64,000 nucleotides of DNA. It comes from Escherichia phage ST2. The notes under the pieces were generated by a model. The model saw only the letters and a program-made list of their open reading frames with translations, was not told where the DNA came from and made no database searches. This document shows, piece after piece, positions 43,576 through 48,319 of this stretch (positions within the stretch are counted from its first letter, which is position 1; every line of letters starts with the position of its first letter). The DNA lies in the sequence record OM982647; one strand, written 5' to 3'. A program made the translations under genes and the position numbers.

Positions 43576-43908
43576 TCACTTATAAAGACACGGAATAGCT
43601 TTATAGTGGCATGTTACGAATTTCTGTTTAATTTCTTTAGGTTGTTTAAGTCCCAAAGCCACAAATGGATGTGGAACATTTCGAATTTGTCCAACTGGTA
43701 GTGGAGTCAAATCACCGACTTCAACAAAACCTTCAGGAACATCAGGACCTACAGAATGAACTACACATAGTTCAGGAACTTCACCTTGAACACGTTTACC
43801 AATCACAAGTCCTGATTCGGTAACTTCTTCATCACCTGCTTGAGCGGGTTCAGAAACCAGAATAACATATTCACCAACAGCACGAATTGGGAGTTGTACT
43901 TCAGACAT
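43576..43908 (-). CDS. 31: head-assembly co-chaperonin gp31 (GroES analogue)
   Basis: 110 aa; [61 protein letters not shown]… is near-identical to T4 gp31. Confidence 0.96.
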
Positions 43909-43938
43909 CTTATTTCCTTGTTGTTTGACGATAGATTA

Positions 43939-43964
43939 ATAATACCATACTATTCGTAAAGCAT
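43939..43964 (-). promoter_or_regulatory. middle promoter (MotA box + -10) upstream of gene 31
   Basis: Minus strand aTGCTTTAc - 12 nt - TATTAT, ~30 nt upstream of the gene 31 ATG. Confidence 0.55.
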
Positions 43965-43965
43965 A

Positions 43966-44262
43966 TTACATAAGAAGCAAACGTTCAACCGGAGTACCAT
44001 CAACCGAAATTACTTTATCAAGGCGGAAAGAACGCCACTGACCTAACTCGGTATCGAATGCTCGAACTGATTCACGAGGTTCATAACGAACTTCTGTTGC
44101 CGGATTGTTATTTTCATATTTGACTTCAAGTTCATCGCGCGAAGCAAACATAGTGCGTACCTCGCCGTTAGCCTTTTCAAATACAACACAATGAACGCCT
44201 ACAGACAGAATAGTTTTAATACGTTCACGAAGAACCATAGTTTCTTGTTCAGTTAAAATCAT
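43966..44262 (-). CDS. hypothetical protein (98 aa), 31.1-position
   Basis: ORF-track start 44274 is GTG inside cd; first ATG 44262 lies 1 nt after the cd stop (TAATATG). Confidence 0.6.
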   Translation of the reverse strand: MILTEQETMVLRERIKTILSVGVHCVVFEKANGEVRTMFASRDELEVKYENNNPATEVRYEPRESVRAFDTELGQWRSFRLDKVISVDGTPVERLLLM

Positions 44263-44263
44263 A

Positions 44264-44845
44264 TTATTCACCACAAAAGTTTCGAATTTGTTCCCAATTC
44301 AGAGAACGAAGATTATTACGAGAGTACTGAATTACTTCAATACCAGCTTGTTTTAGAATGTCGGCCCAATTTTCAGGAGATCTGTCATATAATTCTGCGT
44401 ATACAACCTTTTTAATACCTGACTGCGTAATAGCTTTAGTGCAATCAGGACACGGAGAAAGCGTAGTATATAACGTAGCACCTTCAATAGAATTACCTTT
44501 ACGAGCTGCAAACAAAATTGCATTCAATTCCGCATGGATTTCATTATTAGCAGACCATGCACTATGAGCGGCCCGATGTTCTTTAGCCAAAACAAAATTA
44601 TCCACCCGTCCAAATGCTGTAGTGCCTTCTTTATGCCCAGCAACGATGACCGGGCTTGGTTTATTCTTCAACCAACCGTTTTCGGATGCATGTTCGCAAC
44701 AGTTTGTACCACCTGAAGGAGAGCCATTATAACCTGTAGAAATAATGCGTCCATCTTTTTCAATGACGGCACCAACTTTCCATGAACAACATTTTGATTC
44801 TTGAGAAATCAGATATGCAATCTGAAGGTATGTGCTAGCTTTCAT
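44264..44845 (-). CDS. cd: dCMP deaminase
   Basis: 193 aa, same length as T4 Cd; zinc-binding deaminase motifs HAELNAI and SPCPDCTKAI. Confidence 0.95.
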   Translation of the reverse strand: MKASTYLQIAYLISQESKCCSWKVGAVIEKDGRIISTGYNGSPSGGTNCCEHASENGWLKNKPSPVIVAGHKEGTTAFGRVDNFVLAKEHRAAHSAWSANNEIHAELNAILFAARKGNSIEGATLYTTLSPCPDCTKAITQSGIKKVVYAELYDRSPENWADILKQAGIEVIQYSRNNLRSLNWEQIRNFCGE

Positions 44846-45837
44846 TATTGAACCTTATTAATATAAGTTAACAGCTCTTTAGTTTGTTCCCAACTGATGC
44901 ACGCATCGGTAATGGAAACGCCATAGGACATATTATCAGAAATTTTTTGATTTCCTTCATGTAGGAATGATTCTATCATAATTCCTTTGACCAAATCATT
45001 AGCTGCTAAATTTTTACCAATACCAATTTGATTGCTATAATGCCCATCAGCGTTTGCATGGCTACAGTCAACCATTACATAATGATTCAGACCTACTGCC
45101 CTTGCTTTGTTAGAAGCTTCTTGAATATCAGAAGAATGATAGTTCGGGCCGTTGGTCCCGCCACGCAATACGATATGCGTATTCTGATTACCTTCAGCTT
45201 CAACAATGCCTACAGTACCATCGACGTCCATACCCATATACCGATGAGGCCAGGCGGCACTATACATCGCGTCTGTAGCTACTTTAATAGAACCATTGGT
45301 TGCGTTCTTGAAGCCTACGCACATCGGTAGACCTGAAGCAATTTCACGATGTGTCTGACTTTCAGTCGTACGGGCGCCAATAGCAACCCATGAGAAAATA
45401 CCAGAAAGATACTTAATCGTGAATGGGTCTAATACTTCAGTTGCTAATGGAAGTCCCATACGTAGAAGTTTACGACACAATGTTCGTGCAACTATAAGAC
45501 CGTGGTTCATATCAAAACTTCCGTCAAGATATGGATCATTTACAAGACCTTTCCAACCTACGGTAGTTCGAGGCTTTTCAAAATAAACGCGCATCACTAA
45601 CAGAACATTAGGAAGACGAGTTTGAAGTTCAGCCAGACGTTTGCCGTATTCAACAGCAGCAATAGGGTCATGAATTGAACAAGGACCTACAACAATAAGT
45701 TTGCGTGGGTCTTCACCATTCATAATCGAATTAACTTGTTCGCGATGAGAAGCCACTTGTGATGCGTAAGCTTCCGACAAAGGAATAATCTCAGCCAGTT
45801 CTTTTGGAGAAATAAGTTTTCCGACGACAGGTAACAT
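44845..45837 (-). CDS. 3-deoxy-D-arabino-heptulosonate 7-phosphate (DAHP) synthase, class I-alpha (AroG/AroF/AroH-like)
   Basis: 330 aa with the DAHP synthase signature blocks GPCSIHD, VYFEKPRTTVGWKG, IGARTTESQTHRE, HIVLRGG, IESFLHEGNQ, ITDACISWE; AAGGA Shine-Dalgarno 6 nt before ATG; stop overlaps cd start. Confidence 0.9.
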   Translation of the reverse strand: MLPVVGKLISPKELAEIIPLSEAYASQVASHREQVNSIMNGEDPRKLIVVGPCSIHDPIAAVEYGKRLAELQTRLPNVLLVMRVYFEKPRTTVGWKGLVNDPYLDGSFDMNHGLIVARTLCRKLLRMGLPLATEVLDPFTIKYLSGIFSWVAIGARTTESQTHREIASGLPMCVGFKNATNGSIKVATDAMYSAAWPHRYMGMDVDGTVGIVEAEGNQNTHIVLRGGTNGPNYHSSDIQEASNKARAVGLNHYVMVDCSHANADGHYSNQIGIGKNLAANDLVKGIMIESFLHEGNQKISDNMSYGVSITDACISWEQTKELLTYINKVQ

Positions 45838-45957
45838 AACAATCCTTAGGAGATATAAACAGATTCTGATTCAACAATACCTTTAACCGGATTAGACAGG
45901 CTAAGTTGGTAGTGCTCAGATTTATGACCATTCTCGATAGTAATTAGATAGCTCTCA

Positions 45958-46194
45958 TTATAGTGTTCCATATACTCGAGTTGCTTCAACAAGACCATCA
46001 CTGCCTAATTTAAGATTAGTAATTTGGTCACCATCTTTAGGATTAACGATTATGAGAAAAGAACGTGGAGATTCTTGAATAACTCGTAATGTTGCATCCT
46101 GGAAACGTTCAGATACTTTATTAATCAAAGTCTGAGCGAACTCTTTTACTTTAACATGAAATTCTTGAAGCGTGATAGGTTTTTCACTTAACAT
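45958..46194 (-). CDS. hypothetical early protein (78 aa)
   Basis: ATG start with GAGGAAAACAGA leader and early promoter upstream. Confidence 0.55.
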   Translation of the reverse strand: MLSEKPITLQEFHVKVKEFAQTLINKVSERFQDATLRVIQESPRSFLIIVNPKDGDQITNLKLGSDGLVEATRVYGTL

Positions 46195-46253
46195 TCTGTT
46201 TTCCTCATTGTGTTGGTAGAGTCATAGTATCACAACTCCACCATGTTGTAAAC

Positions 46254-46529
46254 TTAAATTGCAAAACATTTAATTTCTTGTGAATCGAAATCAACTTCGC
46301 ACTGAATTACTAGTTCAGCATCAAGTCCAAACACAACAATCACATGAGCCGAGCTGGGCAACAGTGTAACAGACACAGAATCCACTTGGTCAGGCACCAG
46401 CGTATTCAAAACGTAGAGTAGTTCAGAGTGGATCTTAAGCTCGGTAGCCGTGTCCAGCTTATCAAAGAAATGATTTGCGATAATCTGACTAAAAACGACC
46501 TTTACAATTTCAGAATATTTAGGGAACAT
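46254..46529 (-). CDS. hypothetical protein (91 aa)
   Basis: ATG-initiated ORF in the cd-pseT accessory interval. Confidence 0.55.
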   Translation of the reverse strand: MFPKYSEIVKVVFSQIIANHFFDKLDTATELKIHSELLYVLNTLVPDQVDSVSVTLLPSSAHVIVVFGLDAELVIQCEVDFDSQEIKCFAI

Positions 46530-46536
46530 AATTACC

Positions 46537-46761
46537 TCAGTGTACAGTATTTACTTTAACTCGAACAACAAATTGCTCGGTCGGTTCGCCTACAGGAACA
46601 AACTCTACATGATATTCGCCTTTGTAACGAGTATTCAGGTCGTTACGAATTTCGGTAAGCTTGTTGATTAATGTAGAACTCATATTAAGTCCCACTAGTT
46701 TACGAAGCATTTTGTATGCTTCATCTTCGATTTCATGATGTTTATCGCACATAGTTTTCAT
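46537..46761 (-). CDS. hypothetical protein (74 aa)
   Basis: ATG-initiated ORF in the cd-pseT accessory interval. Confidence 0.55.
   Translation of the reverse strand: MKTMCDKHHEIEDEAYKMLRKLVGLNMSSTLINKLTEIRNDLNTRYKGEYHVEFVPVGEPTEQFVVRVKVNTVH

Positions 46762-46932: not shown

Positions 46933-46933
<1 letters not shown>
46742..46933 (-). CDS. hypothetical acidic protein (63 aa)
   Basis: ATG overlaps the pseT stop by 1 nt (coupled translation); 20-nt overlap with the next ORF. Confidence 0.5.
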
Positions 46934-48019
<1,086 letters not shown>

Positions 48020-48020
<1 letters not shown>

Positions 48021-48319
48021 TATTTTATTCCTAAGAAAGTTTCAAGAATACGAATGTTATGCTCGCGCCGGTCTTTATTAATTTCAGCAACGTTTTTATT
48101 AATTGACGTACTTCTAACGTTTGAAGAAATAAATTTAATCATATGACTTTTGAGTTGTTGCAAATCCAACCCTTTTTCTTTAGCAGCTTTACGAAGAGCT
48201 TTACCTGCTTCATCTAGTGCCTTTGCTGCATCTTTATCATAATTGCCAAGTGACATTCCACGGCAGATATCAATATACTCATCCGACCGTTTGATGTAAT
48301 TCTCTAGTAATGTTTTCAT
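48020..48319 (-). CDS. hypothetical protein (99 aa)
   Basis: ATG start with GAGGAAA Shine-Dalgarno; early promoter upstream (GTTTAC at 48372-48377). Confidence 0.55.

Follow-up and report, generated by a model that had tools for sequence, protein, structure and literature searches.

The window analyzed here comprises 64,000 nucleotides of Escherichia phage ST2 DNA (sequence record OM982647), and its minus strand carries, at 44845..45837, an open reading frame (ORF) of 330 amino acids with an ATG start, which we describe as a phage-encoded DAHP (3-deoxy-D-arabinoheptulosonate 7-phosphate) synthase, the entry enzyme of the shikimate pathway. A preliminary description of this DNA had placed the minus-strand ORF between cd and pseT, had listed six signature blocks in its translation, and had noted that its stop codon overlaps the cd start and that a good Shine-Dalgarno sequence precedes it; the coordinates proved exact, all six blocks were found, and both the TAATG junction and the AAGGA element can be read in the sequence. 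Over the 5 kb around the gene, Escherichia phage ChristianSchoenbein (BASEL Bas46, Mosigvirus phapec2) shows 98.2% identity to the window, and its record names the gene ‘putative aldolase’. The features of the locus are the following.

44845..45837, minus strand: DAHP synthase coding sequence of the phage clade, PHROG 5045 (ORF, family scores, catalytic residues, AlphaFold and Foldseek)
45843..45847, minus strand: Shine-Dalgarno sequence AAGGA, 5 nt ahead of the DAHP synthase ATG (read from the sequence)
44843..44847, minus strand: TAATG junction, a one-base overlap between the DAHP synthase stop TAA (44847-44845) and the cd start ATG (44845-44843) (sequence)
44264..44845, minus strand: cd, dCMP deaminase, directly downstream of the DAHP synthase gene and translationally coupled to it (Pfam dCMP_cyt_deam_1, E 1.7e-26; annotation of a 98%-identical phage)
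44849..45948, minus strand: 1.1-kb segment absent from phage RB69, holding the DAHP synthase gene and about 110 bp upstream of it (blastn; RB69 homology on both sides)
45846..45971, minus strand: hypothetical 41-amino-acid ORF between the cd.2 homologue and the DAHP synthase gene (ORF list; annotated in Bas46)
45958..46194, minus strand: cd.2 homologue (DUF7320), first gene of a putative early transcription unit (Pfam DUF7320, E 6e-36)
46224..46252, minus strand: sigma-70-type promoter-like site, GTTTAC-17 nt-TACTAT with TG (scan match; homology to the T4 cd.3-cd.2 gap)
46933..47832: pseT, upstream of the DAHP synthase gene (PNKP kinase and phosphatase domains, Pfam)

Between pseT and the DAHP synthase gene lie homologues of cd.2 (DUF7320) and cd.3 (DUF7355), two more small ORFs, one of them cd.4-like, and the 41-amino-acid ORF, whose TAA stop is overlapped by the Shine-Dalgarno sequence of the DAHP synthase gene. 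The cd.2 homologue shares 88% identity with cd.2 of RB69 and 63% with that of T4. The 41-amino-acid ORF (45846-45971) falls inside the segment absent from RB69 and has no counterpart at the same position in phages PEi20 or F48.

The translated protein matches Pfam DAHP_synth_1 (PF00793) with an E value of 4e-75 (252.6 bits against a cut-off of 25.5), the NCBIfam aroFGH equivalog TIGR00034 with 428 bits (cut-off 173), and the subfamily model PRK12755 with 455 bits (cut-off 343); its scores with the AroG- and AroH-specific NCBIfam models fall under the cut-offs of those models. PHROG 5045 is matched over its full length (606 bits, residues 1-330 against profile positions 8-337 of 341). With these curated cut-offs exceeded, the class I-alpha assignment made in the preliminary description holds. 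We also considered 3-deoxy-D-manno-octulosonate 8-phosphate (KDO8P) synthase, the other branch of PF00793, and rejected it: NCBIfam returned only DAHP synthase models, and the motif found is KPRTT. KDO8P synthases have a KANRS-type motif where DAHP synthases have KPRT. The signature blocks occupy residues 51-57 (GPCSIHD), 88-97 (KPRTTVGWKG) and 153-165 (IGARTTESQTHRE) and, in the C-terminal half, 221-227 (HIVLRGG), 289-297 (ESFLHEGNQ) and 309-317 (ITDACISWE). The metal ligands C53, H260, E289 and D311 align with AroG C61, H268, E302 and D326, as expected earlier for the Cys, His, Glu and Asp positions, and are invariant across all phage homologues, with the ORF and the catalytic residues intact in every member. 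The residues binding phosphoenolpyruvate (PEP) and erythrose 4-phosphate (E4P) are likewise conserved (R83, K88-P89-R90-T91, G154-A155-R156, K177 and R225), mapped by alignment from the AroG set R92, K97-T100 (KPRT), G163-R165, K186 and R234, which we take to be the substrate contacts in the AroG structures.

The closest solved structure is the Tyr-sensitive E. coli enzyme AroF (6agm, E 7e-105), followed by the N. meningitidis enzyme and AroG, and in a MAFFT alignment the identity to K-12 AroF, AroG and AroH is 51, 47 and 44%, respectively. An AlphaFold2 model built with 56 homologues (mean predicted local distance difference test score 93.3, predicted template-modelling score 0.92) adopts a (beta/alpha)8 barrel and retains the beta6a/6b hairpin, with strands at 198-203 and 209-214; Foldseek against the PDB superimposes it on the DAHP synthases 4hso, 8e0u, 1gg1 and 1qr7 with a template-modelling score of 0.96 and a root-mean-square deviation of 1.3-1.4 Å. 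Family scores, aligned residues and predicted fold together confirm that the ORF belongs to the AroF lineage of metal-dependent type I-alpha DAHP synthases and has all its catalytic residues, and the protein is almost certainly active as a DAHP synthase.

The inhibitor pocket of this enzyme differs from that of the bacterial enzymes throughout the phage clade. At AroG positions 147/150/151/180/209/211, AroG itself reads MPQSFS, AroF PPQSFG and AroH MGQSFS, and the phage clade reads PIKPYG in every protein bar three single-position variants (PIRPYG, PPKPYG and SIKPYG), a type of signature also shared by T4-like contigs in IMG/VR. The canonical pocket residues P150, Q151, S180 and F209 of AroG correspond to I141, K142, P171 and Y200 in the window protein, fixed in the phage clade. 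Nearly all of about 95 nearest bacterial relatives carry PPQSFG or a close variant at the six positions, and P-Q-S-F at 150/151/180/209 is kept in nearly all of them and of 58 other viral homologues, which come mostly from metagenome-assembled genomes (MAGs) of giant viruses. In a few of these bacterial and viral sequences position 150 is V, A or G, position 151 is H or E, or position 180 is T, and the main viral exception is the pair L023/L024 (PPNPYG). Every alignment column was then scanned for sites where one residue is fixed in 92% or more of the phage clade, another in 80% or more of the other sequences, and the two groups almost never share a residue. Only seven were returned, at AroG 150, 151, 155, 156, 180, 209 and 223, the clade-wide changes being P150I, Q151K, D155G, L156I, S180P, F209Y and T223A. 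Four of the seven (150, 151, 180 and 209) are among ten AroG positions published as inhibitor contacts or sites of feedback resistance (hypergeometric P ~1.4e-5 for four or more in common), in a test that is partly unblind, the ten having been taken from the introduction of a 2022 protein-engineering paper (PMC9529685) after P150, Q151 and S180 were spotted by eye. According to that paper, the AroG changes P150L, S180F and F209A/S give feedback resistance, Q151/Q152 and S180/S181 contact the inhibitor, and D155 is a salt-bridge residue that stabilizes the inhibitor region (PMC9529685).

The N-terminus, which in full-length enzymes of this type contributes to the inhibitor site of the neighbouring subunit, is altered as well. 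The phage protein has 50 residues before GPCS, compared with 58 in AroG, 59 in AroF, 57 in AroH and 58 as the median of 90 relatives from bacteria, so that it is 7-9 residues shorter, and AroF Asn8 and AroG Asp6/Asp7 are without counterpart in it. In AroG, Asp6 and Asp7 presumably contact the bound Phe of the AroG-Phe structure. For AroF, PMC5784704, citing Jossek et al. 2001, gives the change of Asn8 to Lys as the classical feedback-resistant (fbr) allele aroF(fbr). The preliminary description had overestimated the shortening, at about 10-15 residues before GPCSIHD; its suggestion that the enzyme may be feedback-insensitive is plausible, and is supported better by the substitutions at inhibitor contacts than by the N-terminal shortening alone. 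Because the pocket is rebuilt clade-wide and the N-terminal residues are lost, feedback insensitivity is likely, and the phage enzyme probably escapes control by the aromatic amino acids. The altered pocket and N-terminus weaken the case for regulation like that of AroF and AroG, and leave the assignment as a DAHP synthase untouched.

The rebuilt pocket is also unusually constant. Within the phage clade the mean entropy is 0.18 bit over the 20 pocket residues and 1.01 bit over the whole protein, which argues that the new pocket residues are themselves strongly constrained. Relaxed selection on the regulatory pocket was considered and rejected, the pocket being more conserved than the remaining protein. 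Two further segments vary far less among the phage proteins than among the bacterial ones, namely residues 23-35 (AroG 31-43), an N-terminal helix with a QV..HR motif, and residues 294-306 (AroG 307-321), the shortened NQKISDNM loop that follows the metal-binding Glu.

Upstream, the window sequence GTTTAC...TACTAT aligns with GTTTAC...TATTAT of T4, where the T4 record notes the early promoter Pe133295 between cd.2 and cd.3, and a search of the minus strand from the promoter-like site to cd found no terminator-like site. Because a homologue of a T4 early promoter lies upstream with no terminator in between, the DAHP synthase gene is probably on an early transcript together with cd. The putative early block would comprise cd.2, the 41-amino-acid ORF, the DAHP synthase gene and cd, and to judge from this arrangement the enzyme is probably made early, alongside enzymes of nucleotide metabolism.

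On balance, and by a slight margin of confidence, we favor the interpretation that the T4-like phages of Enterobacterales carry an ancient and distinct DAHP synthase subfamily, with a pocket that is rebuilt and not simply lost (I, K, G, P, Y and A at AroG 150/151/155/180/209/223) and a trimmed N-terminus, which may be a naturally feedback-resistant enzyme, or one re-tuned to a new effector, that seizes the entry of carbon into the host shikimate pathway. As a working model, to which we assign a probability of roughly 0.6, an early-expressed and feedback-insensitive DAHP synthase feeds the shikimate pathway of the host. In this model, the phage enzyme would be made early in infection and, being unresponsive to Tyr and Phe, would drive PEP and E4P into the remaining shikimate enzymes of the host; pre-existing host enzymes would convert the product to chorismate and thence to the three aromatic amino acids Phe, Tyr and Trp and possibly to precursors of folate or quinones, and the entry of carbon into the pathway could thereby continue once the genes of the host are no longer expressed. 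A comparable effect is obtained in metabolic engineering with one aroG(fbr) or aroF(fbr) gene. No other gene of the shikimate or aromatic pathways is annotated in PhAPEC2 1-50 kb and Bas46 1-72 and 121-169 kb, which together span the genome, and the phage would thus supply only the flux-controlling first step. Whether the phage benefits by being supplied with aromatic amino acids or chorismate we regard as an evenly balanced question.

A number of observations weigh against this model. The promoter scan overall returned a total of sites no higher than in shuffled sequence, and the absence of other pathway enzymes is based on annotation, many ORFs in PhAPEC2 and Bas46 being labelled ‘hypothetical’. 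The constancy of the pocket is explained no better by a mere loss of regulation than by a function that is still maintained, for instance the binding of a new ligand or a structural lock, and the phage replacements (Ile for Pro, Lys for Gln, Pro for Ser and Tyr for Phe) differ from the amino acids of laboratory feedback-resistant enzymes. RB69 and T4 thrive without a DAHP synthase, so any benefit must be conditional. Finally, the literature searched holds only passing mentions of phage DAHP synthases and no experimental study of one, whether enzymatic, genetic or metabolomic.

The distribution of the gene bears on its age. In T4, the slot upstream of cd is occupied by the unrelated 112-amino-acid cd.1, which we considered as a DAHP synthase remnant and rejected for want of similarity (BLASTP E = 12). 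In the annotation of RB69, a member of the same genus as the window phage, cd abuts cd.2 without a DAHP synthase gene, and blastn against RB69 aligns window positions 43901-44848 at 95.6% and 45949-46700 at 82.5%. The comparison of the cd-pseT interval across T4-like genomes that the preliminary description had suggested places the gene at the same position, with the cd.x ORFs on one side and cd on the other, in five Straboviridae-type genera (Mosigvirus, Kanagawavirus PEi20, Marfavirus F48, Bragavirus vB_SdyM_006 and Gualtarvirus PSTRCR_121), with a homing endonuclease or small ORF sometimes interposed, and finds it missing from T4 and RB69. The idea of an auxiliary insertion relative to T4 is therefore right in that the gene is extra with respect to T4 (which has cd.1) and RB69, but not in the sense of a lineage-specific insertion, since the gene is syntenic in at least five genera.

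Relative to the window copy, the DAHP synthases of PEi20, F48, vB_SdyM_006 and PSTRCR_121 are 76, 67, 59 and 62% identical, and the corresponding values for cd are 83, 80, 67 and 65%, the divergence of the DAHP synthase paralleling that of cd, gp31 and rIII. In a neighbour-joining tree of 123 sequences, the 25 phage-type proteins are monophyletic with a bootstrap of 100/100, and AroF is the E. coli isozyme nearest to them; the top bacterial matches are merely 50-55% identical and come from scattered phyla. The ratio of nonsynonymous to synonymous substitution rates (dN/dS) is 0.15-0.18 between genera, with dS near saturation; the near-identical Mosigvirus copies hold too few substitutions for the ratio to be informative. 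The gene is under purifying selection between genera. Most simply, an AroF-type gene was acquired once, long ago, was then inherited vertically over a long period, and was lost or replaced in the lineages of T4 and RB69.

This history has to be set against the proposal that the gene is a recently captured copy of host aroF or aroG, an assembly contaminant, or a decaying passenger without function, which we consider highly improbable. Its attraction is that the closest solved relative is E. coli AroF and that one database cluster representative (P0001) is labelled ‘Escherichia coli’. Yet the identity to AroF is only 51%, the GC content of the gene (41%, and 29% at third codon positions, GC3) resembles that of cd and pseT rather than that of aroF (52%, GC3 50%), and the shared locus in five genera, with a divergence that tracks the neighbouring genes in a fully supported clade, refutes recent capture or contamination. 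A decaying passenger is contradicted by the low dN/dS and by the intact ORF and catalytic residues of all members. Because of the monophyly, the low identity to AroF and a GC3 like that of the flanking genes, we regard the phage lineage as old; the earlier statement that the sequence has diverged from AroF and AroG and is no recent host capture is thereby borne out.

Two other readings accept an active enzyme and differ from the model of a feedback-insensitive supplier in how the enzyme is controlled or in what it is for. The main rival, which we hold to be possible but distinctly unlikely, is that the enzyme is still allosteric and responds to a different effector, for example an anionic or phage-specific metabolite, so that flux would follow the state of infection and not the levels of aromatic amino acids. 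In the pocket, AroG 151 has become a Lys and the Asp at 155 is gone; the pocket is near-invariant (0.18 against 1.01 bit) across genera that are 56-77% identical overall, and all seven clade-fixed changes lie in or beside pocket-forming segments, four of them at published pocket positions; moreover, the beta6a/6b regulatory hairpin is kept, and the neighbouring cd encodes an allosteric enzyme activated by 5-hydroxymethyl-dCTP according to the T4 record. However, the sequence names no candidate ligand, the N-terminal residues by which AroF and AroG close the pocket are lost, which speaks for a site that is open or dismantled, and constraints of packing or of the dimer interface would explain the strong conservation equally well.

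A second rival, less probable still, places the value of the active enzyme elsewhere, either in a drain on E4P and PEP that would pull the non-oxidative pentose-phosphate pathway towards pentose phosphates for nucleotides, or in chorismate for the folate needed in T-even synthesis of dTMP and 5-hydroxymethyl-dCMP. T-even nucleotide synthesis depends on folate, a feedback-insensitive flux would suit such a sink, and the gene sits in a nucleotide-metabolism block, coupled to cd and within a few kb of nrdAB, td and frd. This argument is contextual, though, as the regional gene order is inherited from the T4-like backbone and includes many unrelated small ORFs, and RB69 and T4 make the same nucleotides without a DAHP synthase. 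The sequence by itself separates neither of these two readings from the model of an early, feedback-insensitive enzyme.

We also examined the co-occurrence of the gene with a sugar-phosphate isomerase cluster. In PhAPEC2 (NC_024794, 27303-30191; L089), as in Mosigvirus genomes, a ‘phosphoheptose isomerase’ and an ‘arabinose 5-phosphate isomerase’ lie between uvsX and gp43, genes that we take to be the RB69-type cluster for arabinosyl-hydroxymethylcytosine modification. An arabinose-5-phosphate isomerase is found in 275 phage records and co-occurs with the DAHP synthase in PEi20, CIP9, EcS1, CBH8 and phiP4-3; RB69 has the isomerase without the DAHP synthase, and Klebsiella phages, with 25 DAHP synthase records, do not appear among the ten organism names most frequent for the isomerase (at most 3 records). 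The overlap looks like a matter of phylogeny, not of function.

Elsewhere around the locus, a 99-amino-acid ORF upstream of pseT (48020-48319, minus strand) is annotated as a ‘putative homing endonuclease’ in the 98%-identical Bas46, and RB69 has a different small ORF there. The homologue of gene 31.1 (43966-44274, minus strand) matches Pfam WYL_2 (Sm-like SH3 barrel) and directly adjoins cd in the window, without the 31.2 found there in T4 and PEi20. No tRNAs were found in the whole window.

The gene as such is already known in these phages, and its annotation alone adds nothing. A homologue is held by 212 GenBank phage records, 139 of them at least 95% identical, and the window protein is 100% identical to those of PhAPEC2 and AV115. 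GenBank labels are mostly DAHP synthase or aldolase, with one ‘aroF’, and PHROG 5045 is filed under ‘moron, auxiliary metabolic gene and host takeover’. A DAHP synthase domain is listed in the genome paper on phiC120 (PMC8022965), and in a Klebsiella phage paper the homologue of Kanagawavirus KLB31 is called an amino-acid auxiliary metabolic gene, with a speculated role in aromatic amino acid supply (PMC11845039). The earlier question whether the gene has been described in T-even relatives is answered by this wide annotation in GenBank phages and PHROGs. What is unreported until now is the clade-wide rebuilding of the allosteric site.

DAHP synthase is the rate-controlling enzyme of aromatic biosynthesis, and here it is carried by easily handled coliphages (BASEL Bas46/47 and PhAPEC2) that offer a natural contrast, with RB69 as a close relative lacking the gene and with substitutions at positions where mutation abolishes feedback inhibition. 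If the model is true, a lytic phage would override the allosteric control of its host, beyond merely supplying an enzyme, which would make a clean mechanistic example of an auxiliary metabolic gene that is tractable in E. coli K-12, and metabolic engineers would gain a naturally optimized deregulated (fbr) DAHP synthase. The importance is modest at this stage: the annotation by itself changes nothing, and the outcome is a testable hypothesis.

Among known systems, the nearest are the phage DAHP synthase records themselves (PhAPEC2, AV115 and PHROG 5045), which represent the same gene at the same locus beside cd, the window copy being an ordinary member; experiments and the signature of the allosteric site are absent from all these earlier records and papers. 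The DAHP synthases of giant-virus MAG contigs in IMG/VR (GVMAG) are also virus-associated type I-alpha enzymes, 41-48% identical and with intact metal ligands, but they have the canonical P-Q-S-F and full-length N-termini, and many are prephenate dehydratase fusions of about 650 amino acids; they are a separate acquisition. On these contigs, which are only putatively viral, proteins of about 590-680 amino acids consist of a DAHP synthase followed by a C-terminal extension and have canonical inhibitor-site residues. In one of them (L039, IMGVR_UViG_GVMAG-M-3300023179-115, ORF from about 3001) a prephenate dehydratase domain (PDT, E 8e-17) is part of the extension, and similarly extended DAHP synthases occur at L043, L048, L053, L055, L059-L062, L064, L066, L067, L070-L072 and L074. 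A partial signature is found in a 349-amino-acid DAHP synthase on a jumbo-sized viral contig of 262 kb (IMGVR_UViG_3300028829_003504, L023/L024; ORF 2956..4005 in L024), which reads PPNPYG (Q151 to N, S180 to P and F209 to Y), and the protein P0022 from an ENA contig reads PPKPYG; these proteins could be intermediates or cases of convergent change in the pocket.

Compared with E. coli AroF (PDB 6agm/6agl), the phage enzyme is of the same type I-alpha, with the same metal and substrate residues and with Gly at AroG 211 and Pro at AroG 147 in both. It differs in being 26 residues shorter, since it lacks 9 residues at the N-terminus and about 5 and 3 at two internal sites and ends in a shorter C-terminus, and in the pocket itself, where the Tyr contacts Q152 and S181 of AroF are replaced by Lys and Pro, P151 by Ile and F210 by Tyr, and Asn8 is unmatched. 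Laboratory feedback-resistant alleles of aroG(fbr) include P150L, S180F, F209A/S, L175D and D146N, and engineers raise shikimate flux with a single deregulated DAHP synthase (PMC9529685). The phage clade is altered at four of the same positions, namely 150, 151, 180 and 209, with the Asn8 region of the aroF(fbr) change gone, but its residues at these positions, in contrast to those of the laboratory alleles, are Ile, Lys, Pro and Tyr, fixed and conserved in nature.

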